From an uncultured Opitutales bacterium (GTDB taxonomy: Bacteria > Verrucomicrobiota > Verrucomicrobiia > Opitutales > Intestinicryptomonadaceae): a stretch of 32,000 nt of DNA. Both the position numbers and the translations under genes were made by a program. The notes beneath the pieces were generated by a model that saw only the letters and a program-made list of their open reading frames with translations, ran no database searches and was not told where the DNA came from. The stretch lies in NCBI GenBank assembly GCA_934660865.1, contig CAKUIA010000009.1:60001-92000 (forward strand), in the 5' to 3' direction. This document shows, in pieces, positions 6,901 to 32,000 of the stretch; position 1 is the stretch's first letter; each line of letters starts with the position of its first letter.

Positions 6901-6903
6901 AAG

Positions 6904-8049
6904 CTACGTTCTGTTTGCCCTAAACATTAGGCAAATGCCCAAAATCTGGAATATTATGTTGGGCAGCCAAATCAAAATGTCGGGTCTAAATTCGGGCACG
7001 GCTTCAAGCCACGTTATAAATACGGTGCTCATATAGTAGGTCATAGCCAGTGCCAGCGCAATGCCCACGTTTGCCAAAGTTTCCGATCTCGACGCCTTTA
7101 TGCCAAGCGGAATTGCCAAAACAACCATCGAAAATATCGAAAAGGCCATTGCAAAATTCTTTTGTATCTGCGTTTGAACCTTGATTTTGTCCCTAAAAAT
7201 CATCTCTTTAGTAAGGTCTTTTTCGGGCACGCTGTGCCACGTTTTGCGGGCGTTCATCAACTCGCCGAATGTCATTAGCGAAAGCTTTTTCTTTTGCCCC
7301 GAAAACGACTGGAATATCTTGTTAAGCGGCAGCTTTATCAAAAACTCTTTCGACTCGAATACGGTAAGCGGCTTCGAAAAATCGTCGTCTAAAACGCTTC
7401 GGCGCTGTTCGGTTATCGAGTATTCGGGGCGAATCATAATCTCTTCGTTGGCGTCGTCGTACCAAATAGAGCCGCGCTTTGCGCTAAGGGCGCTTTTTAT
7501 GTCGCCGTTAGGGTCTATCTCCCAAATGCGCAGCCCCGTAAGGCCGTTTTTGTCGGCGTCGTTTGCGTATATTATGTAGCCGGGGAAATCCTTAATAAAC
7601 ACTCCCGGCTGAATAAACCTAAGGGGATTGTTCCTTACAAGGTTTTTAAGGGCGCTTTTGTAGGTATAGTCGGCAACGGGGGCATAGTAGAAATTTATGC
7701 CCACCGAAAATATCGAGGCTAAAATGGAAATCAAAAACACGGGGCACGCCATGCTAAAGAGCGAAACGCCGCCGGCTTTCATTGCGGTGATTTCGCTTTG
7801 CGCCGACATTCTGCCGAACACCAGCAAAATGCCCGTAAGCATGCCCAATGGCAACGCGTAGGGGATTACCCCGGGTATAATAAGGCAAATTATGTATACA
7901 AAAAAGCCGAAGTCTATTTTTCCCGAGGCCACATCGCCCATAACCTCTTTAATTACATTGCCCAAAACGAGAACGAACACGAAAAGCCCCACCGTCATTC
8001 CCGCGGCGGCGGCCACCTGTTTTAATATATATTTATGCAGCGTTCTCAT
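6904..8049 (-). CDS. LPS export ABC permease, LptF/LptG (YjgP/YjgQ) family
   Basis: The N-terminus MRTLHKYILKQV... is typical of LptF/G. There are about 3 TM segments, then a periplasmic beta-jellyroll-like region, then 3 more TM segments. The track start at 8082 is TTG, so I prefer the ATG at 8049. Confidence 0.85.
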   Translation of the reverse strand: MRTLHKYILKQVAAAAGMTVGLFVFVLVLGNVIKEVMGDVASGKIDFGFFVYIICLIIPGVIPYALPLGMLTGILLVFGRMSAQSEITAMKAGGVSLFSMACPVFLISILASIFSVGINFYYAPVADYTYKSALKNLVRNNPLRFIQPGVFIKDFPGYIIYANDADKNGLTGLRIWEIDPNGDIKSALSAKRGSIWYDDANEEIMIRPEYSITEQRRSVLDDDFSKPLTVFESKEFLIKLPLNKIFQSFSGQKKKLSLMTFGELMNARKTWHSVPEKDLTKEMIFRDKIKVQTQIQKNFAMAFSIFSMVVLAIPLGIKASRSETLANVGIALALAMTYYMSTVFITWLEAVPEFRPDILIWLPNIIFQILGICLMFRANRT

Positions 8050-8135
8050 TGTACAGAGCAATAAAATAAAAAAGAGCGGCAATATTTCGCAATATTAAAA
8101 ACCGCCCTTTTTAAAAAATTATCGCCTAAAGATAA

Positions 8136-9125
8136 TTACAAGCCCAAAGACTGCTTGATGATTGCCTGTTCGTCGAGCAATTCCTTGTTCGAGGCGGCAA
8201 TCTTTTCCTTTGCGTAGTCGTTAAGCTCTATGCCCTGAACAACAGTCCAGTTTACGCCGTCTTCGGTGCGAACGGGCAGCGAAGTGATTGCGCCTTTGGG
8301 TGTGTTGTAGCTGCCGTCGGAGCATACGCATACGCTGAAGTATTCGCCCTTGGGGGTGGGGGTGATAAGGTGCTTTACGGTTTCTATTGCCGCATTTGCC
8401 GCGCTTGCCGCGCTCGACAAACCGCGGGCCGCTATAACGGCTGCGCCCCTCTTTTGAACCGTGGGGATAAATGTGTCTTTAAACCAGGCTTCGTCGTTGA
8501 TAACTTCGGTTGCCTTTTTGCCGCCTATAAGGGCATTGGTGTAGTCGGGGAACTGTGTGGACGAGTGGTTGCCCCAAATTACCATGTTCTTTACTTCGGT
8601 GGTGTCGACCCCCGCTTTTTGTGCGAGCTGCGCCTTTGCGCGGTTTTCGTCGAGCATTGTCATTGCAAACCACCTGTTTTCGGGAATCTTCGGCGAGCTG
8701 TGTTTGCCAATCCATGCGTTTGTGTTGCAGGGGTTGCCGACAACCAAAATGCGGACGTCGGGGGCTGCGTTTTCTTCGATAGCTTTGCCCTGGCCCACAA
8801 AGATTTTGCCGTTAATGCCGAGCAAGTCGCTTCTTTCCATGCCGGCTTTGCGGGGAACGCTGCCTACCAACAAGGCCCAGTTTACGTCTTTAAAACCTTC
8901 GTTCGGGTCGCTCGTGCAGGTGATTTTCTTTAGAGTGGGGAACGCACAGTCGTCCAACTCCATCTTAACGCCTTCAAGGGCTTTCATTGCGGGGGCGATT
9001 TCGATAAGGCTCAACTCTACGGGTTGGTCTTTGCCGAAAACATCGCCGCAAGCGATTCTGAACAAGAGGGAGTAGGCTATCTGACCGGCCGCTCCCGTTA
9101 CTGCTACTTTAATAGGTTTTTTCAT
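8136..9125 (-). CDS. mdh: Malate dehydrogenase (LDH-like type 2 / cytosolic-type MDH family)
   Basis: 329 aa. It has [25 protein letters not shown] (Rossmann GxxGxxG), VGNPCNTN and [12 protein letters not shown], which are hallmark type-2 MDH motifs. Confidence 0.95.
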
Positions 9126-9571
9126 AATAGTTATGTAGTATATAAAATCGATTAAAAGCTTTTTGCTATATTTTTATCCGTACATTTCTACCACCATTGT
9201 CGAAGAATGCAAGCTATAATACGCAATTTTTTTGCGGGTTAAATTTTTTGTAAATACGCCTCTAAAATTGCCGATTTACGGTTTTGTTTGCCCGCACTTG
9301 CGTTAAAGCCTAAAACAAAACATCTTCATATTTAAAATTTATCGAAATTATCATTTATTTTGATTGACTTTATTGTTAGGAATTTTTGAATTATGTTAAG
9401 TTTGCTGGCTTTTGTGCGTGGTTTTTGCAAAAAACGCGCCGAATTTCGGCAAAATTCTCTTATTTATTTCCCCAAAAATAAGATAAGAAAACAAGGAAGA
9501 ATAATTAGTCGGAGCGGCATTTTCTCGCGGTTTCGGCTTAGGAATAACACAACTATATAAATACCAAAAAA

Positions 9572-12370
<2,799 letters not shown>

Positions 12371-13855: not shown

Positions 13856-15088
13856 ATGAAAACCTTATTTAAAGCGTCAATAGCACTAATACTAACTTCG
13901 TTTTTCGGCATTTTGAATGCCGAAACAATGAAAAGCATTCAAGATTACGGGGTGTTGCCCACCAACAGTCCCGAAGTTAACCGCGACAACCTGCAAAAGG
14001 CCATAGACGAAGCCACCGACAACGGCGGAATTTTGTTTGTGCCGCCCGTAGCAAGGGGCTACCCGATAGCCAGCGGCGTAATTTTAAAGCGCAATGTTTC
14101 GCTTGTAGGCGCAAACGGGCCTTTGGGCAGGGGTTCTACTGTAGAATTTAAAACGCACCCTAAATTTGAGCCTGCAGGTTCCACATTCAGAATAATGGAC
14201 GCCGAAAAACCCTTTATCACGGTTTCGCACGCAACCAAAATAAAGGGCATACAGTTCTATTATCCGAAACAGGGGCGCACTCCCGAAACGATAATAAAAT
14301 ACCCGCCCACGATTCAGCAGGACACCTATGCCAATTCGGTAACTTTGCAAGAGCTTACCTTTTGGGGCGAATATATTGCAATGAATTTTGCCGACACAAA
14401 GGGCACTTGCGAGCAGATTTTGATAGAGCACTGCTACGGCTACCCCTATAGCGGCGAGTTTATAAGAATAGACCACTGCGCCGACATAAACAGAATTTTG
14501 CACTGCCACATAAACCCCGACAATATGAGGGGCTTTAGGGGCACTATGCCAAAGTCGGTAATAGACCATATTGTAGCGCAGAAAAAGTACGCAATATGGG
14601 TGGGCCGCGGCGACAACATTGTTATAATGGACTTGCACGTTTTCGGTCTATACGGGGCTTGCTACTTTAGCACGGCAAGCTACGGGCAGCTTACAAGCTT
14701 TTCGTTCGACTGCGTAGTTAACGGTATCTATAAAAAAGGCGGCGGGCAAAAGCACCACCAGTGGATGATTTCGCAAGGCTCCATAATTGCGAATGCGGGA
14801 ACAAATATAGACGAAGTTTGGCCTATTGTTATAGAGGGGCAAGGGCACACTTCCATTGCCAATGTAGAGGCCTTTTCGGGCGGAAACGGAGCAATTACAA
14901 ATGTTGGCGCCTCCAAAGGATTTTTGCTTGTAAAGGGCAACGACCCCCTAACTGTTGCCTTAAACGCCTGCCGAATGAACAACTATGTAGACGACGAACC
15001 CATACAGGTGAAAAACAAAAAGGCAAGCCTTAGGGCAAGAGACTGCGTGGGCAAAGATTTGCAGTTTTTCGACTTGGAAATAAAATAG
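13856..15088 (+). CDS. Secreted right-handed beta-helix protein (pectate-lyase-superfamily / GH28-GH55-related), paralog 1
   Basis: 410 aa with a signal peptide (MKTLFKASIALILTSFFGILNA). The mature N-terminus IQDYGVLPTNSPEVNRDNLQKAIDEATDNGGILFVPPVARGYPIASGVILKRNVSLVG resembles the Pectate_lyase_3 opening motif (dyGa...n...lq.Ai....gg.l.vP.G.Y). Confidence 0.6.
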   Translation: MKTLFKASIALILTSFFGILNAETMKSIQDYGVLPTNSPEVNRDNLQKAIDEATDNGGILFVPPVARGYPIASGVILKRNVSLVGANGPLGRGSTVEFKTHPKFEPAGSTFRIMDAEKPFITVSHATKIKGIQFYYPKQGRTPETIIKYPPTIQQDTYANSVTLQELTFWGEYIAMNFADTKGTCEQILIEHCYGYPYSGEFIRIDHCADINRILHCHINPDNMRGFRGTMPKSVIDHIVAQKKYAIWVGRGDNIVIMDLHVFGLYGACYFSTASYGQLTSFSFDCVVNGIYKKGGGQKHHQWMISQGSIIANAGTNIDEVWPIVIEGQGHTSIANVEAFSGGNGAITNVGASKGFLLVKGNDPLTVALNACRMNNYVDDEPIQVKNKKASLRARDCVGKDLQFFDLEIK

Positions 15089-15144
15089 TAAAAACATACA
15101 TTGCTACCCGCATTTTTGCGGAGCGTACATAAAAAAAGAGGAAG

Positions 15145-16386
15145 ATGAAGATGAAAAAATATATAAAAAGCATTGCGCTAATTTCGCTTGCCATATTTGC
15201 CGGCATTTTGAACGCCGAAACAATGAAAAGCATTCAAGACTACGGGGTGTTGCCCACCAACAGCCCCGAAGTTAACCGCGACAACCTGCAAAAGGCTATA
15301 GACGAAGCCTCGAAACGCGGCGGGGCTTTGTTTGTGCCGCCGGTAGGCAGGGGCTACCCAATGGCCAGCGGCATTGTGTTAAAGCACAACGTGTCTTTAA
15401 TTGGCATAAACGGGCCTTTGGGCAGGGGCTCCATTGCAAAGTTCGACGAACACCCAATGTACGACCCCGCAAGCTCGGCATTCAGAATAATGGACGCCGA
15501 CAAACCCTTTATTACAATTCAAAGCTACACCAAAATTAAGGGCATACAATTCTATTATCCCAAACAGGGGTGGACACCCGATAAGGTAATAAAGTATCCG
15601 CCCACAATTCAGCAGGACACTTTTGCCCTTTCGGTAACCTTGCAGGAATTGTCATTTTGGGGCGAATATATTGCAATGAATTTTGCCGACACAAAGGGCA
15701 CTTGCGAGCAGGTGCTTATAGAGCATTGCTACGGCTATCCCCTAAGCGGCGAGTTTATACGCATAGACAACTGTTCCGACATAAACCGCATTTTGCACTG
15801 CCATATAAACCCCGGTACAATGAGGGCTTTTAGAGGCGACTATATGCGAAAAGGCATGGTAGACTATGTTGTAAACCAGAAAAAATACGCCGTTTGGATA
15901 GGCCGCGGCGACAATATCGTTATAATGGATTTGCATGTTTTCGGCGCATACGGGGCATGCTATTTTAGCGAAAGAAGCTACGGGCAGCTTACAAACTTTA
16001 GCTTCGACTGCGTTGTAAACGGCATATACAAAAGCGGACGCGACCAAAAGCAGCACCAGTGGCTAATTTCGCAAGGCTCTATAATTGCAAACGCGGGCAC
16101 AAATATCGACGAAGTTTGGCCGATTATCATAGAGGGCAAAGGGCACACATCAATTACCAACGTAGAAGCCTTTTCGGGCGGCAACGGTGCCCTTGTAAAC
16201 GTGGGGGCTTCCAAGGGATTTTTGCTTGTAAAGGGCAAAGACCCGTTGACGGTTTCGATGTACGGTTGCAGAATGTATAAATACACCGACAAAGAGCCGA
16301 TTCAGGTTTTAAACCGCAAGGCAAGCCTTAGGGCAAAGGACTGTGTAGGCAAGGATTTGCAGTTTTTCGACTTGGAAATAAACTAA
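15145..16386 (+). CDS. Secreted right-handed beta-helix protein, paralog 2 (tandem duplicate)
   Basis: 413 aa and collinear with paralog 1 over the whole length, about four-fifths identical by eye. The mature N-terminus (ETMKSIQDYGVLPTNSPEVNRDNLQKAIDEA) and C-terminus (CVGKDLQFFDLEI) are identical. An alternative ATG lies at 15151. Confidence 0.6.
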   Translation: MKMKKYIKSIALISLAIFAGILNAETMKSIQDYGVLPTNSPEVNRDNLQKAIDEASKRGGALFVPPVGRGYPMASGIVLKHNVSLIGINGPLGRGSIAKFDEHPMYDPASSAFRIMDADKPFITIQSYTKIKGIQFYYPKQGWTPDKVIKYPPTIQQDTFALSVTLQELSFWGEYIAMNFADTKGTCEQVLIEHCYGYPLSGEFIRIDNCSDINRILHCHINPGTMRAFRGDYMRKGMVDYVVNQKKYAVWIGRGDNIVIMDLHVFGAYGACYFSERSYGQLTNFSFDCVVNGIYKSGRDQKQHQWLISQGSIIANAGTNIDEVWPIIIEGKGHTSITNVEAFSGGNGALVNVGASKGFLLVKGKDPLTVSMYGCRMYKYTDKEPIQVLNRKASLRAKDCVGKDLQFFDLEIN

Positions 16387-18933: not shown

Positions 18934-19010
18934 GGGGTGGTAGTTCAGTTGGTTAGAACGCCTGCCTGTCACGCAGGAGGTCGCGAGTTCGAGTCTCGTC
19001 CATCCCGCCA
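18934..19010 (+). tRNA. tRNA-Asp (anticodon GTC), CCA encoded
   Basis: The 77-nt cloverleaf is readable by eye. The acceptor stem is GGGGTGG / CCATCCC, the D-arm is TAGTTCAGTTGGTTAGAA, the anticodon stem-loop is CCTGC-CTGTCAC-GCAGG, and the T-arm is GCGAGTTCGAGTCTCGT. It ends with discriminator G plus CCA. Confidence 0.95.
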
Positions 19011-19015
19011 CTTTA

Positions 19016-19049
19016 AAAGCCGCAAGTTCAAACACTTGCGGCTTTTTTT
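19016..19049 (+). terminator. Rho-independent terminator after tRNA-Asp
   Basis: The stem is AAAGCCGCAAGT (19016-19027) / ACTTGCGGCTTT (19034-19045), running into a T-tract that ends at 19049. Confidence 0.8.
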
Positions 19050-19173
19050 GTTTCTACATTTCGCGCCAAACCCAGTATCCACGCGGTTTGCGGGGCTGTG
19101 ATGCCGCGCAAAGCCAGTATTTAAGCCACTTGCGGCGGAACGCCCGCCCGCCCAAAAACCGCCAAAATTGGCG

Positions 19174-19680: not shown

Positions 19681-19899
19681 TTAGTTCCTTTCGTAAGCGA
19701 TTTGCTTTGCCGCCATCAGGCGCGAAACGTGCCGAAACGGCAGCTGAGCGACTCCTTCCATTGCGAAACAAAGTTCGCGGTTTCTGCGGCGGTATGACAT
19801 ATACCTGCCGTCGCGTTTGTATTTTGTGTGGGGGGTATTTTCTTTTTCCATATTTTTTAACATTGCGATAAAATGTGTATCGGTCTCAAAATTTATCAT
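19681..19899 (-). CDS. Hypothetical small basic protein (72 aa), gene 3 of the four-gene cassette
   Basis: The ATG at 19899-19897 overlaps the ATPase TGA stop (19898-19896) as ATGA. An alternative upstream ATG at 19944 would give 87 aa. It has an Arg-rich core (YKRDGRYMSYRRRNRE). Confidence 0.55.
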   Translation of the reverse strand: MINFETDTHFIAMLKNMEKENTPHTKYKRDGRYMSYRRRNRELCFAMEGVAQLPFRHVSRLMAAKQIAYERN

Positions 19900-21320
19900 C
19901 TGCGCGGAGTCCGAGCCAAGGCGTCCCTCAACCCTGCCAAACATTCTCGTTCTACATCGGGTTCTGTGCGCGGATTTCTATGTGGAACGTCCACAAACAG
20001 CCGTTCGAGCTTTACGGCGCAAGGCGTGCAAAAACCGTTCGCCAGCTTGACGAATGCGTATCCCTGCGGCAGATTTTCGGGCGAAGTAAATTCCTCGCGC
20101 GGTTCTGTATCGTCAGCATTGAAGCCGATGTTTGGGCGCGGAGGCGGAGCATATGCCGCGAACTCTACAAGTTTGGCGGCTTCGGGCTCGGACGTTCTAA
20201 ACACGAAAAGGTTGTTGATGTTTGCGAGCAGATGGGCGCGTTCCCTTTCGCCGATTGCCAAGTCGAGAGCAACAATTCCCTGTGTTGCGGCAATGGCAAA
20301 ACCGCCTTTGCTGCGCATTGTTTGGAGGTTGTAGGAATCGCTTGAAATGTCGCGACCGCCAGTTGCAACAAGCGGGAATTCGTCCATAACAATTCCCGCA
20401 ATGCGGTTGTCGGGAGAGTCGCCGCGAAGCTGTATAGTCCTATAAAATTGGGCTTTCGCGAGTTTCGCCACGATTGCCGCCGCAAACTGGTTTGTTGTCG
20501 CGGGAAATGTCAGAACGACAATCTTCCCGAACTTTGCGGTGTCTCCGATATCCAAAAGCTTTTTGCCGCTTAAAAAGTTTCGGGTTGTCCGATTTTCGAG
20601 AAGCGCGAGTGTGTTTGTCATAGTGCTTATCTCGTTGCTTTTCGTGCGCGAATCGAGCTTTTGCCACTCCGACAGGTCGGATTTTAGCCGCTTTGCAATG
20701 CGCTTTATCTGCGCCCAAGCCGCGTTTTTTCTCGATTTGTCAACGGCTTCGCGCCGGCAGATTTCGGGCAAAGCGGAAGAGATGAAATCCCGCCATTCGT
20801 CGATTTTGTCCGAATCCAAAAAATCCCGAAACGAATCGGTGAATTTGTCGAAATCCATCGAATCGTGGCGGAAGAGACAGAAGTTAAAAATTGTATTCAA
20901 ACGCTTGCGGAACGCCATTGTCCAATACACGTTTTCGCCGCTGTTGTCGCCGAATGCGGACATCAGGAAATCTACAAGTTCCGAAACTTTCGCGGACGAG
21001 TCCGCTTCGGCAAAAGGATTGATGTAGTAGTGTCCGTCGCCCGAGAAGTCCACAACATCGCGCATTCTGCCGCATTCGTGCGCCCACTTTTTGATTTTGC
21101 AAAGCGTACCGTCGTTTTTGAAATCGAAGAGCAACAAGCCTATTTTCCGCCTCTTGTCGTCTGCGCGAAAGGCAATCAGCCCGCGCAATAGGGCGTTTAG
21201 CGATGTTGTTTTGCCGCTGCCCGTGCTGCCGATAAAAAGCGTGTGCTTGCAAAGGGTGTCGGCGGTCAGGACGATTTCCCTACCGCCGCCGTTTAGCTTT
21301 GTTATAATTTCGTCTTTCAT
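19896..21320 (-). CDS. TrwB/TraD/VirD4-type (FtsK-HerA superfamily) P-loop ATPase lacking an N-terminal membrane anchor, gene 2 of the four-gene cassette
   Basis: 474 aa from the ATG at 21320; the track start at 21392 is TTG. Walker A is HTLFIGSTGSGKTT (GSTGSGKT encoded at nt 21230-21207). It also has LLLFDFKNDG, YINPF, Walker B GIVMDEFP and RSKGGFAIAATQGIVALD. The order matches the coupling-protein nucleotide-binding domain, and no hydrophobic N-terminus is present. Confidence 0.7.
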   Translation of the reverse strand: MKDEIITKLNGGGREIVLTADTLCKHTLFIGSTGSGKTTSLNALLRGLIAFRADDKRRKIGLLLFDFKNDGTLCKIKKWAHECGRMRDVVDFSGDGHYYINPFAEADSSAKVSELVDFLMSAFGDNSGENVYWTMAFRKRLNTIFNFCLFRHDSMDFDKFTDSFRDFLDSDKIDEWRDFISSALPEICRREAVDKSRKNAAWAQIKRIAKRLKSDLSEWQKLDSRTKSNEISTMTNTLALLENRTTRNFLSGKKLLDIGDTAKFGKIVVLTFPATTNQFAAAIVAKLAKAQFYRTIQLRGDSPDNRIAGIVMDEFPLVATGGRDISSDSYNLQTMRSKGGFAIAATQGIVALDLAIGERERAHLLANINNLFVFRTSEPEAAKLVEFAAYAPPPRPNIGFNADDTEPREEFTSPENLPQGYAFVKLANGFCTPCAVKLERLFVDVPHRNPRTEPDVERECLAGLRDALARTPRR

Positions 21321-21796
21321 GCGAAAATGCCAATGGGCGTCAAAATTTCCTCGGCAGGCGTTGGACGGTCGTTTCCGAATCGTGCCCGCCAAAGCCTTGC
21401 CAACTCTTCCCTTGCTTCGAGGTCGTAGGCGTTCTCGAATATTTCGCGGAACTTCTCCCTCGTTATCCTCCCGAAAACGCCTTTCTCTTCAAGAACGGGA
21501 AGAAGGCTGTTTTCCACCATTACAACTTCCGCCCAGACATCGTCGGGAAGCGTCAGTCTTCGCCAAAGCGGTTTTTCGAAATTCCGCTCCGCAAACAAAA
21601 GTGCCGCGATATCCGTTTGGGGTATTTGGTATCCGTCCGAAACAATCCGCCCGAACGCCTCGTAGACCAAAGGATTTAGGCGCAAAAACATTACGGGCAA
21701 AAGCGAATGTTTCTTGATAAACGCGAGTATTTCCCCGTTCAGCGCGCCTTCGTTTTTGTCAATCATTTCAAGTAGTTTTAGATATAATTTATTCAT
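21317..21796 (-). CDS. Hypothetical protein (159 aa), gene 1 of the four-gene cassette
   Basis: The start is an ATG at 21796. Its TGA stop (21319-21317) overlaps the ATPase ATG as ATGA. It looks helical and I recognised no motif. Confidence 0.6.
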   Translation of the reverse strand: MNKLYLKLLEMIDKNEGALNGEILAFIKKHSLLPVMFLRLNPLVYEAFGRIVSDGYQIPQTDIAALLFAERNFEKPLWRRLTLPDDVWAEVVMVENSLLPVLEEKGVFGRITREKFREIFENAYDLEAREELARLWRARFGNDRPTPAEEILTPIGIFA

Positions 21797-21829: not shown

Positions 21830-22006
21830 TTGCGTCTAAAAATTTACCTGAACTAAGTTTGACATGCTGCGAAATATTCTTCCATAGTCGATAAAATTGC
21901 ATTTAACTGCAAAATTACAGAGTGTAGACGATTATTTTACAAAAAAACACTTGCAAAATAATATTTTATAGCCGATTATTTTGCAAATATTGAATATTTT
22001 TAGGTT

Positions 22007-23278
22007 ATGGACGAATATTTTGCAGGCATAGAGAAATTTAACTTTTGGGGAGATAATCCGCCCGATTTGGGATTTTCGCGCAAATTTTATCTCGAAAAAA
22101 TAGCGGCGTATTCGGAGAGCAAATTGATAAAGGTTCTCGTCGGGCAAAGGAGGGTCGGCAAAAGCTACATTCTGCGGCAAATACTTTTTTCACTCGTAAA
22201 AAGCGGACTTCCAAAAGAGAACACCCTTTACATAAACCGCGAATACGCCGAGTTCGGCTTCATAGAAAGCGCGGAGGATTTGGAGCGCGTCTTTGCCGAA
22301 TATAAAAAGCGGATGTCTCCGAAAGGCAAAATCGCCATGTTCATCGACGAAATACAGAACATAAACGGCTGGGAAAAATTCGTGAATTCGCACTCGCAGG
22401 ATTTTACCGAAGAATGCGATATCTACATAAGCGGCTCGAATTCTAAAATGCTTTCGGGGGAGCTTGCGACGTTGCTTTCGGGGCGATATATCCAGTTCGA
22501 GATTCTGCCGTATTCGTTTGTAGAGTTTGCCGAGGTAAACGGACTTTCCGCCGATAGGCAGGCGTATTTGAAATACCTTGCAACGGGCGGGCTTCCCGCT
22601 CTTACAACGCTTCCGACCGAGGAAAGCCGACGCAACTATGTAGACGCGTTAAAAGACACCGTGTTGTTGCGCGACATCGTGCAACGATACAATATAAAAG
22701 ACCCGAATCTGCTGGAAAATCTTTTCGCGTTTGCCGTAAACAATTCGTCGTCGCTGATTTCAATCGGCGGCATCGTCAAATACTACAAAGGCAAAAATAA
22801 GGCGACGACCTACGAAACCGTTTCGTCATACTTGGAATATATGCAAAATTCGTATATTTTGCACAAAGTTGATAGATTTGATATGCGCGGCAAGGAAGTA
22901 TTGTCGGGCAAAAGCAAATACTACCTCAACGATTCCGCCTTTCACAACTACCTTTTTGCAGGCGTTGGCTACGGGATAGGATACCAGCTCGAAAACCTGG
23001 TTTATCTCGAATTGCGCAGGCTCGGCTTCGATGTTTTTGTGGGGACTACGAGGACAAAGGAAGTAGATTTCGTGGCGAAGAAAAGCGACCGTGTTGTTTA
23101 CATTCAAAGCTGTTATTTGCTATCCGACGAAGAAACCGCCAAACGCGAATACTCGGCGTTGGAGTCGATTCACGACAACTACGAAAAATACGTTGTTTCG
23201 CTCGACGATGTAAAAATGCCGAACCGCGGCGGGATAATCCACCTGCGCGCGTGGGAGCTGCAAGACGCGCTCAAATAG
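22007..23278 (+). CDS. AAA_14 / DUF4143-type ATPase
   Basis: 423 aa. Walker A is LVGQRRVGKSY and Walker B is IAMFIDEIQ. The C-terminal region (KEVDFVAKKSDRVVYIQSCY) has the layout of the DUF4143 nuclease-like module. This architecture is common in accessory regions. Confidence 0.8.
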   Translation: MDEYFAGIEKFNFWGDNPPDLGFSRKFYLEKIAAYSESKLIKVLVGQRRVGKSYILRQILFSLVKSGLPKENTLYINREYAEFGFIESAEDLERVFAEYKKRMSPKGKIAMFIDEIQNINGWEKFVNSHSQDFTEECDIYISGSNSKMLSGELATLLSGRYIQFEILPYSFVEFAEVNGLSADRQAYLKYLATGGLPALTTLPTEESRRNYVDALKDTVLLRDIVQRYNIKDPNLLENLFAFAVNNSSSLISIGGIVKYYKGKNKATTYETVSSYLEYMQNSYILHKVDRFDMRGKEVLSGKSKYYLNDSAFHNYLFAGVGYGIGYQLENLVYLELRRLGFDVFVGTTRTKEVDFVAKKSDRVVYIQSCYLLSDEETAKREYSALESIHDNYEKYVVSLDDVKMPNRGGIIHLRAWELQDALK

Positions 23279-23280
23279 CG

Positions 23281-24219
23281 TTATTTTGCCTTGGCGGTTT
23301 CTTTTTCCAAAGCTTTCTTATTTTCGCGCTCTTCGTCGGCTGTCTGCCTTTTTAGGATTGTGCGCAAAGTTTCTTCGCTGTCCACATCGTCGGAGAATTC
23401 TTTGCAAACGTCGTCGAATTCTGCGGAACTATACTCTTTAACGAAGCTGTCGCGGAACTTTTTCAACGCCTGCTCAGGCGTATGATTTTTTCGGTCATAT
23501 AATGCGAAAAAATGGTGTTCGTATTTGCTGCGTTCGGTAATGTCGTCCCTGCCGTCGTTCGAGTCTGAAATGCAATTAGGGTGGCACGCAAAGACAACGG
23601 CGATATATTTGCCGACGTTGCCGTTGTATTTTTGAAATTCTACATTGCGGACAACCAGCCCGTAGCGTCGGCGCGGAAGCTTTGTTCGCTTGTCGGTTGG
23701 AACAATTTTGCGCCGAAGCGGAATTTTAAAATCCCTTTTCAGAATGCGCGTAATCGAAGAGGGCGGATATATCGCCTTTCTGTCTTCGGATTGCGTTTTA
23801 TCGGCGGGCTGTTTTGATTTCACGCTTTGAGGTTTGCGCCTTTGCTTTTTTGAAGTCCATTTGTATCTGCACCCGCAAATGTCGTCGCGGCATTTATTGA
23901 GCTCGCCGCAGATTTTCGAGCGCGTTTGAATTTCACCCGAGGTGAGGCAGTCCAAAATTAGTTCGTTGCGGGCGTTCAAGTTCGACGCCGGCGGCCGTCC
24001 GCGCCCGCAATACGGTATGTCAGCGTAAAGCCTATGCACTTCTTCGGCTGAATCGAAATCCCCTTCTTCGCGGATTATTTTTAGCATTCTGCGAATATGC
24101 GCAGGCTTGATTGGCGAATCTTCCAACTCGAGTTTTCGATACGCATACCCGACGGAGCAATCCCCCAGCGATTTCAGTGCGTCGTACGTTTTCTCGAAAA
24201 TTGTTGCATTTGAAGCCAT
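23281..24219 (-). CDS. Hypothetical basic protein with an AT-hook-like GRGRPP motif (312 aa)
   Basis: ATG start at 24219. It contains PYCGRGRPPASN (an RGRP core), a Cys cluster (KICGELNKCRDDICGCRYKW), Lys/Arg-rich linkers and an acidic C-terminal tail. I recognised no family. Confidence 0.6.
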   Translation of the reverse strand: MASNATIFEKTYDALKSLGDCSVGYAYRKLELEDSPIKPAHIRRMLKIIREEGDFDSAEEVHRLYADIPYCGRGRPPASNLNARNELILDCLTSGEIQTRSKICGELNKCRDDICGCRYKWTSKKQRRKPQSVKSKQPADKTQSEDRKAIYPPSSITRILKRDFKIPLRRKIVPTDKRTKLPRRRYGLVVRNVEFQKYNGNVGKYIAVVFACHPNCISDSNDGRDDITERSKYEHHFFALYDRKNHTPEQALKKFRDSFVKEYSSAEFDDVCKEFSDDVDSEETLRTILKRQTADEERENKKALEKETAKAK

Positions 24220-24239
24220 TTGATATTTTATATAAACAT

Positions 24240-26654
24240 ATGTTAGACGAACTGAAATTCAAAGCTTTTTTACAAGAAACCCTCAATCGGGCACCCGATG
24301 ACGACCAAATGGCGGTTCTTCGCGAAATCGCGCGGGTGGCCGAGTCAAATGAGGCTTTGAATTATTTTAGGGTTGGCGCAAGCGCGGGCTCGGGAAAAAC
24401 CACACTGATTTTATTTGCCTATGCCCTGCTCAGAAAATTTTGCGGAGTCCACAGTAATCAAATCGTAATTCTTACGCTTAATACACGCATCTCCAACAAG
24501 ATTAACCTCGAAATCAAGGCGATTGAAAACAAACTGGAGGAACCCGAGCTTTCGGACGTTTGCGCATACACATTCCACGCATTTGCCATGAGATTTTTGA
24601 GAAAAGTCTCTATGAAAAAAGGCGACATATTAACAGAAAATGCCAGTGTCTATCATAAAGATGTTTCATATAAGTTCCAGAATTTTATAGGCGAGGAATA
24701 TCTTGACGATGAAAAGTTCCGAAAAGACATCGACAATCTCGATTTTCTTGCACATTCGGAGGCGGACTGTTCGACCGAAAAGTCGAAAAAAGTAATGTTG
24801 TCGGAGAGGCTGTCTGACTTCGGAATTTCGAGCAACGGAGCTGTGCTTCGCGGCGACATTGGCAGGCGTTGCTCGAAGGAATTTCAACAAAACCGCACGC
24901 TGCGCGGGGACTCGTTATTGGACTCGGCGGGGAATCCGCTACCGCAAGCTTTTCAGAAGAGAATCTGCGACATCGCAAACCGCCTTTTCCTTTGGGACAT
25001 AAACTACGACTTAAAAATTTGCGACGCCCGTGCGATAATTTCGATTATCGACAACTCTGACTTTGGACAAAACCGGTCTGCCGAATCGGCAAGGCGAAAA
25101 TCGTATATTGAAATCGTTGACGGAGACCAAGACGACAATATGTTTTACGGATCGCTTTTGGTAAACGGCAAGTTTTTGAAATCTTTGCCGACGCAACCTA
25201 CGCCCGAAGATTGGCTAAAGTTTTCGCCCGAAGAAACGCCGTCTGACATCGCCGAATTGAGGGAATTTTGCAACGAATGCAATGCCAATACGGAAGGGCA
25301 GAAAATTAAAGACCTTTCCGGCCTCACATACATCGGCAAGGACGAACTATCGAAGTTCCTAATGGAAATAATAGAACGGCTGAGAGCCGAAGGGAAGATA
25401 AGCGTTGTGCCCAAATCCGGCAGTATGGACGTAAAGACATATGTGGATAAAATATTAAAAAAGTATTCGTCGTCGAATGGTAATGTAGAATCGGGAAGTA
25501 ATTTAATCGGAGGAAGCGTAAAAACGCGCGCACAAATCGAATCTTTTTTCAATATCCTATCTACTACGTTGTGCGAACTCATTGACGTAAACTTCGAAAC
25601 ATTTTCAGCTGTTATGGAAAAGGCGGTCGGAAAAAGTCCGTTGTCGAGTAGGTGCGAAAAAATGCTTAGCAATTTGCGTTTTGTGTTTGTTGACGAAGCT
25701 CAGGATATGAACCGCGTTTTTGTAGACGTTTTAAAAGAAATTAGAAAGTGTGCGCCCGCCGCCAATTTCATAACGGTAGGCGACCCGGCGCAGGCAATTA
25801 ACAGGTTTATCGGCGCACATCCTACGCTGTTTTTGAATTTGGCAAATCCGTCGAAGTCTGTGGACATTCCCAAAGACGGCGCGGATACAGGCGACAACAC
25901 CAACCATACTCCCCAAGGGCAGGAAAACCCGTTCGGTAATTTCAAAGTAAAACGCTTTGAGTTGCCAATCACATATCGAATGGATTTAAAGCTTGTTAAT
26001 GCCGCCAATACTTTCAAAAATTTCAAGCGTGTAAAAAGCGACAATTCAAATTCACCCGACATGCGGCTATTCGGACTTACCATGCGTCCGTGTGCCGGAA
26101 AAACAAGCAATGGGGATATTGAGGTTCACTGCATCGCGCCGAAGGTTATGTCGGAATTTTCAAAAAAGTTCTACGATACGCTTTGCGGGATAATCGAAAA
26201 GGAATTGGCGAAAAATGAAGACGCCGATTTTGCACTGCTAGCCAGAACAAACTTGGTGGATTCGATAGGCGATTTGGAGCTGATTAGACAAAAAACGCTG
26301 TCGCTATTGAAATCGAAAGGCGTAAAACTCTCCCCCGCGAAATTGAGAGCTTCAACCGTCCATAGATACAAGGGCGAAGAAGCCGACTGTGTCGTAATTC
26401 TCGATGCGACGGACAAAAACTATCCGAAACACTTCGATGAAACGGCGGAGAAAATCAAGCAAATCCTCTTCAATGATCCGCCAAGTGCATATTATGACGA
26501 TTCGGTAAACTTGTTCTATGTCGCCATAACGCGAGCCCGACATTCGCTGCACTTCATTTGCAACGACAACCCAAGCGCATTTTTGACGAGGGCGGGAATT
26601 TTGACTGCACGGACACGGCTCAATGAGAGGGAAGCCAGCCAAGACGTCCGCTGA
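24240..26654 (+). CDS. UvrD/Rep/PcrA-like SF1 helicase with a greatly expanded region between motifs Ib and II
   Basis: 804 aa from the ATG at 24240; the track start at 24111 is TTG and would overlap the divergent gene. Motif I is VGASAGSGKTT, TFHAFA lies at about aa 111-116, and motif II is FVFVDEAQDMN at about aa 481-491. Motif III is VGDPAQAINRFIGA, motif IV ITYR, motif V LLARTN and motif VI STVHRYKGEEADCVVILD, followed by LFYVAITRARHSL. Confidence 0.85.
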   Translation: MLDELKFKAFLQETLNRAPDDDQMAVLREIARVAESNEALNYFRVGASAGSGKTTLILFAYALLRKFCGVHSNQIVILTLNTRISNKINLEIKAIENKLEEPELSDVCAYTFHAFAMRFLRKVSMKKGDILTENASVYHKDVSYKFQNFIGEEYLDDEKFRKDIDNLDFLAHSEADCSTEKSKKVMLSERLSDFGISSNGAVLRGDIGRRCSKEFQQNRTLRGDSLLDSAGNPLPQAFQKRICDIANRLFLWDINYDLKICDARAIISIIDNSDFGQNRSAESARRKSYIEIVDGDQDDNMFYGSLLVNGKFLKSLPTQPTPEDWLKFSPEETPSDIAELREFCNECNANTEGQKIKDLSGLTYIGKDELSKFLMEIIERLRAEGKISVVPKSGSMDVKTYVDKILKKYSSSNGNVESGSNLIGGSVKTRAQIESFFNILSTTLCELIDVNFETFSAVMEKAVGKSPLSSRCEKMLSNLRFVFVDEAQDMNRVFVDVLKEIRKCAPAANFITVGDPAQAINRFIGAHPTLFLNLANPSKSVDIPKDGADTGDNTNHTPQGQENPFGNFKVKRFELPITYRMDLKLVNAANTFKNFKRVKSDNSNSPDMRLFGLTMRPCAGKTSNGDIEVHCIAPKVMSEFSKKFYDTLCGIIEKELAKNEDADFALLARTNLVDSIGDLELIRQKTLSLLKSKGVKLSPAKLRASTVHRYKGEEADCVVILDATDKNYPKHFDETAEKIKQILFNDPPSAYYDDSVNLFYVAITRARHSLHFICNDNPSAFLTRAGILTARTRLNEREASQDVR

Positions 26655-27325: not shown

Positions 27326-28720
27326 TTAACGATCAAAATCATAACTACGTTGTGTATCTTGCGTAGGCTGGTTTTGTTGCGTCCTACTTTGCGGTGGCGG
27401 ATACCCTTGTTGTTGTCCGGTCTGTTGTTTTTGAGTTTTCTGCTGTTCCTTTTCGTGGAAGAATTCTTCCAAATCTTTTATGATATACAAAAATAGTACC
27501 ATCATTTTACTACCATTTGGCGAAAGTTTTTTTTCCCACTCCTGCTGAAATTTTTCTAACGTCGAAACATACTGTATATTTCTGAGAGCATCTGACAACA
27601 TGCCCCTAACTTTTGTGCCAGCTTCCGAAATTCGTCTTGTTGTTGTTTTAAGGTTTCTTTCAATTGATAGATTTCCTGGGTGTAGCTTTCCATGATATTC
27701 TCTTCCATCTGATCCATCGATCTGTTTAGCGCCTCCACTTCCCTCGCCAAATCTTTCGCTATTTCCTGAACCCCCTCGCGAAGAATTCCGTGAATCTGCG
27801 ACTTGGGTTTTTTCAACTCGTTCATGAGGATTTCCGCAAACGGCGGAATCATATGATACAGAATTGGCGTTGCTGTTTTTGACATGTTGTCCAATGTTGT
27901 TGCTTTGTTCTGGGTGTTCATAGTTTTTTAAGTATTTATATTTATTTTTAAGACGCGCGTAGCGCGTTTGGGAAAGTTTTTTGTATTGTTCGTCAACATC
28001 TACTCCTTCCGAATCAATCGCACGCGTGTTGTCGTTATTACAAAGATTGCCTGTAAGTTTTATCTTCGTATCTCCCGATTTTACTGTTATCGAAGTGTCG
28101 GTCTTTCGGTTTATGATAAAATTGCTTTGCTTTAAAAACCTTTCGAAATCCTCGCGGTTGTTTATCGCTTTCCCATACTCCGACATCTCATTTTTCAGTC
28201 TGAGGAAAAGCGACTGCTGAGACGAATTCCAATATTTGTTTGCATCGGCAAGTCCCCGCCTGAGCTCGGGCGAATTCGGGTCGGTGAGTTTCGGATATTT
28301 TTTATGGATATAACGCCCGAACGCCTCGAAGTATTTTCTGTCGTATTTATCGAAATAGACCGGGAAATATCTCCCGCCGACACTCTCCGCCGCAACGAAG
28401 TTTAATTCGAAATCGTGCTTGGGATTGTCGTGCAAGATGAACAAGTGTTGAAAGTTCGACTTGTCCATATTTGGATAAACCTTCTCCAGAATGTCGTCCA
28501 TTAACGAAGCAAGAAACTTTGTCCCTCCAAGCTCCGCAAGCGACTTTTTGTCGCGATAGCAGAACGTCACATAGCCCTTCTTTTTGCTGGATTTTTGTTC
28601 GATTTCGCGCATAAAACTGTCATAGCAACCGCCGACAATTGTTGAGGGACGCTTGCGTCCTTTTGAATCTACATCGCCGAGCAAGTACTTTAACGTAGAC
28701 GGTAAATATTCTATAATCAT
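27326..28720 (-). CDS. Putative relaxase / mobilisation nuclease (MobA/VirD2-like, divergent)
   Basis: 464 aa. Its ATG overlaps the mobC stop as ATGA (28720-28717). The N-terminus MIIEYLPSTLKYLLGD... fits the relaxase opening pattern with candidate catalytic Tyr residues. The His-motif position reads ILHDNPKHDFELNFV. The C-terminal tail is Q/P-rich. Confidence 0.55.
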   Translation of the reverse strand: MIIEYLPSTLKYLLGDVDSKGRKRPSTIVGGCYDSFMREIEQKSSKKKGYVTFCYRDKKSLAELGGTKFLASLMDDILEKVYPNMDKSNFQHLFILHDNPKHDFELNFVAAESVGGRYFPVYFDKYDRKYFEAFGRYIHKKYPKLTDPNSPELRRGLADANKYWNSSQQSLFLRLKNEMSEYGKAINNREDFERFLKQSNFIINRKTDTSITVKSGDTKIKLTGNLCNNDNTRAIDSEGVDVDEQYKKLSQTRYARLKNKYKYLKNYEHPEQSNNIGQHVKNSNANSVSYDSAVCGNPHERVEKTQVADSRNSSRGGSGNSERFGEGSGGAKQIDGSDGREYHGKLHPGNLSIERNLKTTTRRISEAGTKVRGMLSDALRNIQYVSTLEKFQQEWEKKLSPNGSKMMVLFLYIIKDLEEFFHEKEQQKTQKQQTGQQQGYPPPQSRTQQNQPTQDTQRSYDFDR

Positions 28721-29169
28721 CTCGAATTCCTTTGTCTTATCTGCGATAGGATTTCTTTGTGTAATTCGGAATTACTTTTTACATATTCCACTATCGCTAA
28801 GCATTCGTCGCCGTTCTCAATTCCGCGGGCGAAATCTTCTATTGCCATAGCCTTACCCAGAATTTTCACAAGCGCAGCCTGTGTGTTTAATATATCGATG
28901 GGGTTCTCGTATTTCAGCGCAAAATTCAGATCTCGCGCAATCTGGTTGAGATTGTTTGAAAGCCTGCTGATTGCCACAATACGCGCATGTTCAATTGTCT
29001 CTTTTTTGACGAAAACAAGATCTCGTATCTTTCCGAGAAAATCCGCAACGGCGTTACGTATAAGCTCGCCGACACTGATTTCCCGCGCCTTCGCCTCCGC
29101 GTTCCATAATTTCTTTTCCTTTTCGGGAACGCGAAATTCCACTCGTTTATCTTTTGTTTCTTTGTCCAT
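28717..29169 (-). CDS. mobC: MobC-family relaxosome accessory protein (RHH N-terminus)
   Basis: It carries the signature ISRLSNNLNQIARDLN (MobC consensus G/SNNLNQIAR.LN). The N-terminal segment RVEFRVPEKEKKLWNAEAKAREISVGELIRNAV is ribbon-helix-helix-like. I prefer the ATG at 29169 because the track start at 29229 is TTG. Confidence 0.8.
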   Translation of the reverse strand: MDKETKDKRVEFRVPEKEKKLWNAEAKAREISVGELIRNAVADFLGKIRDLVFVKKETIEHARIVAISRLSNNLNQIARDLNFALKYENPIDILNTQAALVKILGKAMAIEDFARGIENGDECLAIVEYVKSNSELHKEILSQIRQRNSR

Positions 29170-29245
29170 AATTACAATTTTCCTTAAGAAACGCGTAGCG
29201 TTTTCGGGGGTGTCCAGAGGGGGTGTCAACCACCCTCGGCAAGCT

Positions 29246-30548: not shown

Positions 30549-31748
30549 TTACGCTTTCGAATTTTCCGTTGATTCCTCCGCCAAGCTTTGCGGCGTGATG
30601 GAGAAGAATTTTTCGGCATCTTCAATATTGGCGCTGCCCATATAGTGCTGAGCCAGCGTGGCGTAGCCACGAATGTGCCCCATGTCGGCAACGGTCTTTT
30701 GCGGCCCGAATTTGAAATACGCGTATGTGGCGAACGTATGCCGCAAAACGTCCTGCGAGAGGGCAACCGGCAGCCCGCGCCGCATTTTCCGAAACGTCCA
30801 ATACGAGCCTTTTATTATGTTTCCTTCCCGTTCGTCCTCGGGAACGGTTTCCAGAAACGCCCACAAGTTTTCGGAAACATTTTGAGTGGCGCGCTGCTTG
30901 CGCACTTTCGATGTCTGCCCCTGAATCGTGATAACTTTCGATTTGAAGTTGATGTCCGACCACTGCATAAAACGCTTCTCGAAATTGCCAATCAGTTCCC
31001 CCGGGCGGACTCCGTAAAACGTCATCAGCGCAAAGCCTGCCAGATACTCTTTCGGAACTGATTTCAGCAGAGTTTTGACCTCTTCGACTGACAGAATTTT
31101 CGCAGGCATCGTGTCGCTATACTTGCGCATAAGCGTAACCTCGGCGGCAACGTCTTCCGTAATGTATCCCTCCCGTTTGGCGAACTTGAACAACGCCTTG
31201 ATTACTTTGAGGTTGTTCTTCTGCGAACCGCTCGAACGTATGTAGGATTCGATTTCGCTTTTTAAGATTGTCGCGAAATTTCGAGTTCCATTGAAGTAAG
31301 TGATAAAGCGGACGCGCAGGTATTGGTCGTATTCCTTGAGCGTTTTGTCGCGGAGATTTATGTGCTGGCTGTGTGCCATAAAGTTTCGCACGCAGTCCCG
31401 CACCAATATGACCTTGTTGTATGAATTCAACTCGACGCGCCTGATGGCGTCCTTGATTACAATCTCGGTGGACAGCCCGCGCCTGTGGCATTCCGTGTTG
31501 AGCTTTAAGACGGCCAAACGAACGCCGCTTGGAATTGTCATATCCTCTGGGAGCGAATACTCGCTCCTAAGCGAAATCATAAAAGATTCCGCTTCGCTTT
31601 TGGTCGTAAACGACCTTGATTTTAATTTGCCCGCATCGGGATAAAACACCAAATAAGGCGATTTGCGCCCGTCGCGATACTCCAGTCTAATTGAATTTGT
31701 TTTCATACAAGGGAATGTGTTCCGCGGATAAAATTTCCGCCAAAACAC
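30549..31748 (-). CDS. Tyrosine recombinase / phage-type integrase
   Basis: 399 aa. The catalytic-domain motifs are FYGVRPGEL (box I Arg), DVLRHTFATYA (HxxR), MGH and LAQHY (Tyr). An N-terminal SAM-like/arm-binding region is present. The track start at 31748 is GTG with AAGGGA upstream, and an alternative ATG lies at 31706. Confidence 0.9.
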   Translation of the reverse strand: MFWRKFYPRNTFPCMKTNSIRLEYRDGRKSPYLVFYPDAGKLKSRSFTTKSEAESFMISLRSEYSLPEDMTIPSGVRLAVLKLNTECHRRGLSTEIVIKDAIRRVELNSYNKVILVRDCVRNFMAHSQHINLRDKTLKEYDQYLRVRFITYFNGTRNFATILKSEIESYIRSSGSQKNNLKVIKALFKFAKREGYITEDVAAEVTLMRKYSDTMPAKILSVEEVKTLLKSVPKEYLAGFALMTFYGVRPGELIGNFEKRFMQWSDINFKSKVITIQGQTSKVRKQRATQNVSENLWAFLETVPEDEREGNIIKGSYWTFRKMRRGLPVALSQDVLRHTFATYAYFKFGPQKTVADMGHIRGYATLAQHYMGSANIEDAEKFFSITPQSLAEESTENSKA

Positions 31749-31802
31749 CGAATCCCTTTATACGTGCGTAGCACGTCCCGCGCCCACTCGGGCGCACCCT
31801 CT

Positions 31803-31836
31803 AAAAAACAAAAAGCGGCAAAGTCCCCTTTGCCGC
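31803..31836 (-). terminator. Rho-independent terminator for a minus-strand gene entering from the right
   Basis: The stem is GCGGCAAAG (31815-31823) / CTTTGCCGC (31828-31836). The minus-strand U-tract corresponds to the + strand AAAAAACAAAAA at 31803-31814. Confidence 0.7.
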
Positions 31837-31886
31837 CGATGTTTGTTGTAAGATGCCGTTAAACGCAAAATCCGATTCTATTGTTG

Positions 31887-32000
31887 CTATTTGTTGAACG
31901 GTCTCTTTTTGAATTCGGTCTCGTACTTTAAACGTTCAAGAATATCGCGCATGCTCGATTTATTCGATAAGCAGTTTTCCCATCTGAATTTCAATGTTTT
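31887..32000 (-). CDS. 3' end of an unidentified gene (5' part lies outside the window)
   Basis: The minus-strand frame is open from the window edge and reads ...KTLKFRWENCLSNKSSMRDILERLKYETEFKKRPFNK*. The TAG stop is at 31889-31887 and the terminator above follows. The fragment is too short to assign. Confidence 0.35.
   Translation of the reverse strand, partial: KTLKFRWENCLSNKSSMRDILERLKYETEFKKRPFNK

Follow-up and report, generated by a model that had tools for sequence, protein, structure and literature searches.

A gene for a UvrD-like helicase of superfamily 1A (SF1A) and a gene for a 312-amino-acid (aa) protein of an orphan family, transcribed away from each other on a mobile element of an uncultured Opitutales bacterium, form a conserved divergent unit. 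The two genes lie in a 32,000-nucleotide (nt) stretch of contig CAKUIA010000009.1 (GenBank assembly GCA_934660865.1, positions 60,001 to 92,000 of the forward strand), which we call the window; the 312-aa protein is called the partner. A gene for an XRE/HigA-like helix-turn-helix (HTH) protein adjoins the pair, and the three together are dispensable content of a slot in an integrative mobilizable element at a tRNA-Asp gene, where they can be replaced or lost without loss of the element (Table 1). As to function, we tentatively put first, at rather less than an even chance, the reading that the three proteins make up one accessory module in this cargo slot, of a defence or exclusion type and directed against other mobile DNA.

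The divergent arrangement recurs in a second lineage (loci L001, L003, L098, L104–L107 and L114–L116), where a partner homologue of 284–290 aa lies divergently upstream of the helicase gene, the helicase being 38% and the partner 32% identical to their counterparts in the window. An earlier note on this DNA, made from its letters alone, had taken the two genes for a possible module, and across genomes their layout is indeed kept, in the second lineage with a spacer of 37 bp. The partner family was found only alongside this helicase family. The ratio of non-synonymous to synonymous substitution rates (dN/dS) is 0.19–0.21 for the helicase and 0.23 for the partner, which indicates purifying selection on both genes. 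The XRE/HigA-like gene adjoins the pair in both lineages, on different sides (next to the partner gene in the L001-type loci); at 47–53% identity its product is the best-conserved member of the trio, and it is likely the regulator of the module.

Both families are tiny and were found only in gut metagenomes. Among 5.8 billion proteins, the whole-length helicase family comprises 16 clusters and the partner family 11, the latter in two subfamilies at about 32% identity. An exhaustive profile search of 1.84 billion representatives returned two 50%-identity helicase clusters and a distant third subfamily (P0058, 788 aa, E = 2e-72). The sole helicase-bearing genome among 185,579 species representatives is an uncultured Opitutales metagenome-assembled genome, with 89% identity and the same element at the same tRNA; the remaining helicase copies all come from metagenome assemblies, from human gut wherever the records name a source. 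At three loci of the third subfamily (L101, L102 and L103, from three sequencing runs), the contigs all break off at an identical base, 96 bp before the helicase gene begins, which suggests an assembly break at a repeat or at an element end; there the integrase homologue downstream of the helicase is split into two open reading frames (ORFs).

The exact length and sequence of the spacer, which the earlier note had singled out, are not conserved between lineages. The 20-bp spacer is identical in L006 and L010; the lineage at 38% identity has an unrelated AT-rich spacer of 37 bp (L001), as does L003 if its partner starts at the methionine aligned with the L001 start (the gene as called uses an upstream methionine, 19 bp away). 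Neither gene has a Shine–Dalgarno motif in the 20-bp spacer and no consensus sigma-70 promoter is called at the junction; both promoters must overlap the spacer together with the 5′ ends of the adjoining coding regions. The surroundings of the pair contain neither iterons nor conserved repeats. One operator-like inverted repeat (24171–24183 and 24246–24258) went undetected in L006 and L010 and has no equivalent in L001 or L003, and is probably due to chance.

Domains of the helicase and its partner

The true start of the helicase gene is the ATG at 24240, because all homologues begin at MLDEL or MIDEE; a longer ORF from a TTG at 24111, which overlaps the neighbouring gene, is an artefact of the ORF rule. 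SF1A motifs I, Ia/Ib and II–VI follow in order (GSGKT at aa 50, with the Walker lysine at K53; TFHAF at 111; VDEAQD at 484; GDPAQ at 514; ITYRM at 577; TVHRYKG at 706; VAITRAR at 761) and are invariant across the family alignment. Both Pfam models score above their cutoffs (PF00580, 92.3 bits against 23; PF13361, 47.4 bits against 25.6). The coordinates given in the earlier note, the 20-bp divergent spacing, the full set of SF1 motifs and the distance of about 370 aa between motifs Ib and II are all borne out. Pfam, NCBIfam and PADLOC alike recognise only a generic UvrD-like helicase.

TFH and DExQD lie 373 aa apart, compared with 162 aa in E. coli HelD and, as read from the alignment, about 130 aa in the UvrD of D. 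radiodurans, which is the closest match among solved structures; the helicase therefore departs from the canonical spacing, in which a compact 1B domain separates motifs Ib and II by about 130 aa. This gap had been described from the sequence as a large, unassignable domain inserted at the 1B position, but a large gap is normal for this helicase-IV-like branch: 141 of 156 helicases have 300–400 aa between the two motifs, with a median of 321, in a set made up of family members and best profile hits and hence biased toward proteins resembling the query. The insert is a folded, constrained domain and no linker, because its dN/dS (0.20–0.23) equals that of the helicase core and many of its residues are invariant. 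The case against which the earlier note had hedged, a coiled coil or disordered linker beside a variable neighbour, does not describe this locus, in which the neighbour, too, is co-conserved.

The relatives that share the gap are helicase-IV-like proteins of 850–1100 aa, in which the corresponding position is occupied by a domain with the motif series TLxGExVKSxGExxIANxLFEHxIxYxYE ... YRPDFTI ... VIEYFG. From this pattern, together with weak HSDR_N and RmuC matches (E about 0.1) and a partial match to the PADLOC candidate PDC-S68, their inserted domain may be read as restriction-endonuclease-like, of a PD-(D/E)xK-like kind. No Pfam family matches either the relatives' domain or the window insert, the latter even at E ≤ 10. 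In a profile–profile comparison (hhalign), the insert and the relatives' domain give a collinear match at E = 1e-3; restricted to the core, the match reaches E = 4.8e-4 (probability 32%, 31% identity over 67 columns); a control with the query reversed gave E = 0.29. The core alignment pairs TLRGD with TLxGE, the helix KRICDIANRLFL with GEKxIANFLFEH, YDLKI with RPDFTI, and AIISI with VIIEY. The last approximately 100 aa of the insert match a helical region that many relatives have ahead of motif II; these relatives align to residues 380–536 of the query.

In this alignment, the acidic positions of the relatives are lost from the insert: the GE is gone and IEY has become ISI, while the aspartate of PDF aligns with D257, which is asparagine in the third subfamily. 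The insert thus does not keep the conserved acidic residues of catalytic type (GE on the helix, D on strand 2 and E on strand 3). That it is a diverged copy of the relatives' nuclease-like domain is suggested by these comparisons, not proven. If the alignment is correct, the insert is unlikely to be an enzymatic nuclease effector because those acidic residues are lost, which tells against the effector role that the earlier note had offered for it beside that of a specificity part. An AlphaFold2 model of the helicase from nine sequences has a predicted local distance difference test score (pLDDT) of 44, below 50 in the insert; at this low confidence, it places a helix at 236–251 and strands at 256–260, 264–269 and 288–293.

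The insert has no match in plasmids, and a profile of the whole helicase detected no relative with the insert in IMG/VR. All three distant relatives with the insert for which the locus was inspected lie in conflict-type contexts. One lies among genes for SIR2, S8 peptidase plus AAA, and DEAD/MZB proteins; P0063 (L118, 26–10889), within an integrase/AlpA island, directly follows a type I restriction–modification system accompanied by a GmrSD_N gene; and P0065 (L119, 1154–5368) directly follows a 459-aa NYN-domain gene. The L118 and L119 loci may be uncharacterised defence arrangements.

The partner matches nothing in Pfam, NCBIfam, PHROG or PADLOC, nor in PLSDB plasmids, INPHARED phages or IMG/VR, and its profile reaches at best E = 1.8 against PDB sequences (the ADAR Z-alpha winged helix). 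The notion that it is a split-off domain of the longer relatives was rejected: its profile finds nothing in 150 related helicases. In its AlphaFold2 model (pLDDT 69; predicted template modelling score 0.64), the N-terminal half consists of several helices and a GRGRPP loop (aa 72–77) that leads directly into a helix (78–92), a turn and a second helix (100–115), a helix-turn-helix. The C-terminal half has a short helix (154–162), a well-predicted β-β-β-α-α domain (186–280), in which R191, E234, H236, F237, F238 and Y241 are conserved, and a C-terminal helix. A Foldseek search with the model returned nothing significant in PDB or BFVD; among weak PAS/LOV-like matches to the C-terminal domain, the best has E = 0.19, and the highest probability, 0.82, belongs to the second-ranked (E = 0.20).

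Among the DNA-binding features that the earlier note had attributed to this protein, the Gly-Arg-Pro hook stands. The segment PYCGRGRPPAS (aa 69–79), with its Arg-Gly-Arg-Pro core, is invariant across both partner subfamilies and is followed by the modelled HTH. The proposed Cys cluster (CGELNKCRDDICGC, aa 104–117) does not hold up: of C104, C110, C115 and C117, only C104 is conserved, and C117 is arginine in the majority-rule consensus of the 11-sequence alignment. C71 is conserved as well. A zinc-binding cluster was rejected because four conserved metal ligands are absent. The Lys/Arg-rich stretch (122–150) is an insertion specific to the window clade and is disordered in the model (linker at aa 117–153). 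A DNA-binding role for the partner can reasonably be inferred from the hook and the predicted HTH.

These features would also suit a one-component transcription factor, with a DNA-binding N-terminus and a sensor-like C-terminal domain, that controls the helicase gene while the helicase works alone. A divergent layout around an AT-rich spacer of 20–37 bp is typical of regulator–target pairs; the GRGRPP hook, the HTH and the weak PAS/LOV-like matches all point the same way. Those matches are not significant, however, a dedicated XRE regulator is already conserved beside the pair, and confinement to a single helicase family is unusual for a plain regulator. We consider this explanation unlikely; it could hold together with either of the two broader readings of the pair that are weighed below.

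A replaceable slot and its proposed function

The element in the window has an integrase, a TrwB-type coupling protein, a NikA/MobC-like protein and an adjoining tRNA-Asp gene, which identify it as an integrative mobilizable element, with the relaxase assigned by position. Its slot, from the relaxase-like gene to a 159-aa gene, varies in content. In L110, the integrase is 92% identical to that of the window, the 102-aa and 294-aa genes are 83–93% identical and the mobilization genes only 28–60%; the slot (14495–15727) is occupied by a 91-aa gene together with one for a HipA_C kinase-type toxin, and the HTH, helicase and partner genes are absent. In L112, a deletion removes helicase residues 1–178, the spacer and partner residues 1–89, and every other gene is intact. 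In L007–L009, a 137-bp deletion spans the Walker A region of the helicase, and gene calling recovers nothing but short pieces of the partner, presumably because of frameshifts. The pair has thus been inactivated at least twice independently. The AAA_14/DUF4143 ATPase gene beside the partner is also variable: the window and L006 have it, L007–L009 and L010 have lost it through deletions with the same endpoints (window 21942–23194), and L109 and L112 retain no more than a 27-aa C-terminal remnant. Both it and the helicase gene lie on the strand opposite the backbone genes.

Several lines of evidence lead us to favour an accessory module. First, the pair and the HTH gene are conserved in a second element type at the identities given above, and both genes and the insert have dN/dS of about 0.2. 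Second, the module sits at different positions in the two backbones: the coupling-protein and relaxase-like genes enclose it in the window, the integrase and the attachment (att) end in the L001-type loci. Third, L110 carries the HipA_C gene in the slot despite its closely similar integrase, and the slot also holds the variably present ATPase, which PADLOC lists as defence candidate PDC-S01. Fourth, the helicase and the ATPase are encoded opposite the backbone. Fifth, there are the independent inactivations of the pair. Finally, the three distant relatives occur in conflict-type contexts, and the best PADLOC matches of the helicase are to GajB-type models. That the module acts against other mobile DNA, through phage defence or by excluding competing elements, rather than serving the transfer of the element that carries it, is speculative.

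In such a module, the helicase would be the motor and the partner a DNA-recognition subunit that directs it to DNA. The partner would bind AT-rich DNA through its hook and HTH, probably including its own divergent promoter of 20–37 bp, and would probably act there as an autoregulator of the shared promoter. The insert would be a nuclease-derived and probably non-catalytic platform for binding DNA or protein, and the XRE protein would set the expression of the module.

Other observations weigh against an accessory module of this type. None of the three proteins has a recognised effector domain (Pfam, NCBIfam, PADLOC, PHROG), and the nuclease-like insert is without the acidic residues kept in relatives. 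PADLOC assigns the genes to no system, giving only partial matches to GajB models and no GajA, and the defence-island contexts come from three distant relatives only. In addition, integrases at 33–36% identity adjoin the helicase in both other lineages, a gene of approximately 105 aa next to the integrase is common to all three, and the order of helicase, integrase and small gene is kept in the second and third. Helicase, integrase and small gene have diverged similarly in the three lineages, more like a core module than like fast-turnover cargo.

This shared divergence and synteny also support a role in the life cycle of the element, in which the partner would bind a site on the element (an origin or the nicked origin of transfer, oriT) and load the SF1A helicase, so that the circle formed on excision is unwound for replication of a rolling-circle type or for transfer. 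The L001-type loci contain no relaxase or coupling protein within 12–22 kb, which leaves the pair and the integrase as the sole DNA-processing proteins visible there; the helicase retains all of its motifs, the insert has apparently lost the nuclease residues, and no effector domain is found. There is precedent in rolling-circle elements, which reportedly require a helicase of the UvrD/PcrA type and may bring a helper of their own (PMC3542172, PMC4439123, PMC4863604); the arrangement would resemble PcrA working with HelP in ICEBs1, or the dependence of the phages CTXphi and Pf on UvrD. Against this role, L110 retains its integrase block and mobilization module without the trio, L112 has lost the pair with its other genes intact, the partner resembles neither HelP nor HUH Rep proteins nor known loaders by sequence or fold, and the pair has no iterons or conserved repeats beside it. 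We regard a life-cycle role, the main rival of the accessory reading, as somewhat doubtful. More specifically, the pair might be a self-contained replication-initiation module that allows an integrative element of Verrucomicrobiota to replicate once excised and to do without an HUH Rep protein, the partner being a new site-specific initiator or loader that recruits the element-encoded helicase; its hook and HTH might then recognise the origin, and its C-terminal Glu, His and Tyr might nick DNA or grip the helicase. This we hold to be decidedly improbable.

The HTH protein raises a further possibility, that of an addiction module resembling toxin–antitoxin systems, in which the HigA-like protein would neutralise or repress a toxic helicase–partner pair and so stabilise the element. 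The protein resembles HigA antitoxins and a PHROG family annotated as plasmid antitoxin with HTH domain, it is the trio's best-conserved member, and the slot of L110 holds a HipA-type toxin gene. However, its HigA score falls below the cutoff, and no same-strand ORF of at least 60 aa, as expected of a HigB/RelE-type toxin, lies beside its gene. That gene is in no operon with either member of the pair, and its position flips between lineages. An addiction module is, in our judgement, very improbable. The accessory module remains our tentative preference.

If the pair works as a unit, the partner would represent a new accessory subunit, built on a Gly-Arg-Pro hook and an HTH, for targeting SF1A helicases on mobile DNA, and the pair would provide a first functional handle on the mobile elements of gut Opitutales, which to our knowledge are essentially unstudied. 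The putatively nuclease-derived insert at the 1B position, common in helicase-IV-like proteins and covered by no Pfam model, matters for the annotation of 'UvrD-like' genes in defence islands. The pair is real and rare, and its main interest lies in the strictly co-conserved orphan partner and in an unannotated, putatively nuclease-derived insert common to many helicases; without a phenotype, it is a lead of moderate interest rather than a surprise.

The remainder of the element

Housekeeping genes fill the first 18 kb of the window (PheA, ScpB, IlvD, LptF/G, malate dehydrogenase, PPDK and a GH2 enzyme). Homology between the window and L010 begins at tRNA-Asp, the only known RNA family in an Rfam scan of the window. 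The element genes then follow in the order 140-aa gene, coupling protein, 159-aa gene, ATPase, partner, helicase and XRE/HigA-like HTH protein; after these come a 464-aa gene in the position of a relaxase, the NikA/MobC-like gene, the 294-aa and 102-aa genes, and the tyrosine integrase.

Table 1. Features of the element in the window (positions are those of the 32,000-nt stretch)
Feature	Coordinates	Strand	Basis and remarks
tRNA-Asp(GTC)	18934–19010	+	Left edge of the element; ARAGORN and Rfam
Type IV coupling protein (mobilizable-element backbone)	19896–21392	−	TrwB_AAD_bind 7.4e-11; T4SS-DNA_transf; TraG-D_C
AAA_14/DUF4143 ATPase	22007–23278	+	Pfam matches; PADLOC defence candidate PDC-S01, 4.7e-137; variable neighbour, outside the pair
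Partner gene, 312 aa, orphan family	23281–24219	−	ORF
20-bp spacer, TTGATATTTTATATAAACAT	24220–24239		Between the start codons; 85% A+T; followed by ATG at 24240
SF1A UvrD-like helicase, helicase-IV-like branch, 804 aa	24240–26654	+	Pfam UvrD-helicase 5.5e-26; UvrD_C 2.3e-12
Helicase insert, about aa 120–470	24597–25649	+	Conserved in all three subfamilies; many invariant residues
Central core of the insert, about aa 218–300 (TLRGD...KRICDIANRLFLWDINYDLKI...AIISI...YIEIVDGDQ)	24891–25139	+	Tentative homologue of the relatives' nuclease-like (α-β-β-β) domain
XRE/HigA-like HTH protein, 119 aa	26703–27062	−	HTH_26; HTH_3; antidote_HigA 39.5 bits (cutoff 47.7); convergent with the helicase
464-aa gene in relaxase position	27326–28720	−	Conserved HDNPxHDFELNF-type motif
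NikA/MobC-like accessory gene	28717–29229	−	NikA-like, MobC and RHH_1 matches
Tyrosine integrase	30549–31748	−	Phage_integrase (weak); PHROG integrase 5e-25; preceded by the 102-aa and 294-aa genes

The coupling-protein ORF as listed begins at a TTG and overlaps the 159-aa gene (21317–21796) by 76 nt. The start in the window probably lies further downstream because the equivalent ORF in L010 has 473 aa and begins at an ATG; in L007–L009, the coupling-protein gene is split in two. The 464-aa protein has no Pfam or PDB match and would be a relaxase by its gene position; its first 160 residues, with LFIxHxNPxxx(F/Y)ELNF among them, are also kept in L110, a divergent element, and the gene may represent an undescribed relaxase family. 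Beyond its 140-aa gene, L110 carries an 883-aa gene with a restriction-endonuclease domain.

No attR and no repeat of tRNA-Asp were found in 31750–32000, nor was the right end of the element found within the window. The L001-type elements are flanked by a 50-nt copy of the 3′ part of tRNA-Asp, and partial copies occur in L001, L003, L098, L104, L105 and L114–L116. The terminator hairpin of the tRNA itself, found at 19011–19051 of the window, also follows the partial copy in L114 and L115. In L104, a second integrase-like gene (5848–7026), 23% identical to the window integrase, abuts a partial tRNA-Asp copy (about 7262–7317), which suggests tandem elements at one tRNA-Asp site.

The related elements also contain a stretch of approximately 3.9 kb without any ORF above 90 aa in any frame (L104, 18277–22189; also L001, about 7617–11234, and L105–L107). 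It has a strongly positive GC skew, lies upstream of a gene for a 400-aa ParA-like protein in the related element, and is 96.6% identical between L001 and L104, compared with 82–85% for the flanking coding genes. No Rfam family matches it, even at E ≤ 1. The stretch could encode a very large non-coding RNA, serve as a replication or partition region, or be a recently exchanged segment.

Comparison with known systems

The clade of HelD and other helicase-IV-like UvrD proteins is the closest to the window helicase. Helicase IV (NF008276, an equivalog model) is its best NCBIfam match, and both have SF1A motifs I–VI, an enlarged region between Ib and II and a short spacing between motifs IV and V (only 129 aa, against 93 aa in HelD). 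The window helicase differs in its score (82.8 bits spread over three separate stretches, where the cutoff is 543), in its far longer distance from Ib to II, and in the location of its gene on a mobile element with a dedicated partner. It also has no Helicase_IV_N-type domain: GSGKT lies at aa 50 rather than aa 219, no Pfam match precedes the helicase domain, and the N-terminal domain of approximately 200 aa that characterises helicase IV is absent. A HelD-like role in RNA polymerase recycling was set aside, the N-terminal domain that defines HelD being absent.

The uncharacterised relatives of 850–1100 aa (P0063, P0078, P0091, P0131 and others) share the gap of 300–400 aa, the helical segment before motif II and an insert core that aligns weakly in the same order, and they occur in islands with integrases. 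Unlike the window helicase, they keep the GE...PDF...IEY set and have long N- and C-terminal extensions; they have no partner-like domain, and their identity to the window helicase outside the helicase core is negligible.

Gabija (GajA–GajB) likewise combines a UvrD-like helicase with a second protein on mobile elements, and GajB models top the PADLOC matches of the helicase (best E = 4.2e-22, 76.5 bits, in three partial stretches). These matches are partial and generic, and more distant helicase-IV-like proteins outscore the window helicase on the same models. The partner is unrelated, and the window genes are divergent rather than in an operon. None of the partner, the HTH protein and the AAA_14 ATPase matches a model of GajA, an OLD-family ATPase with a TOPRIM nuclease, and the pair is therefore not Gabija.

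In the DNA-binding domains of Hin/resolvase-type and Tc1/IS630-type proteins, a Gly-Arg-Pro hook is immediately followed by a helix-turn-helix. The partner has this layout in its model, with GRGRPPAS followed by helices 78–92 and 100–115; it differs in having no detectable sequence or fold match to them and no recombinase or transposase catalytic domain.

The integrative element ICEBs1 encodes a helper, HelP, that assists the host helicase PcrA (PMC3542172), and the phages CTXphi and Pf are reported to depend on UvrD (PMC4439123, PMC4863604). Like ICEBs1, the window element is an integrative mobile element that joins an SF1A helicase to an element-encoded accessory protein; unlike ICEBs1, it encodes the helicase itself, and its partner, which matches no Pfam, NCBIfam, PHROG or PADLOC model, has nothing that links it to HelP. 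The combination of a UvrD-type helicase and an accessory protein on a mobile element is thus of a known kind, here made up of a new member of the helicase-IV-like branch of UvrD helicases and a partner from a previously undescribed orphan family.

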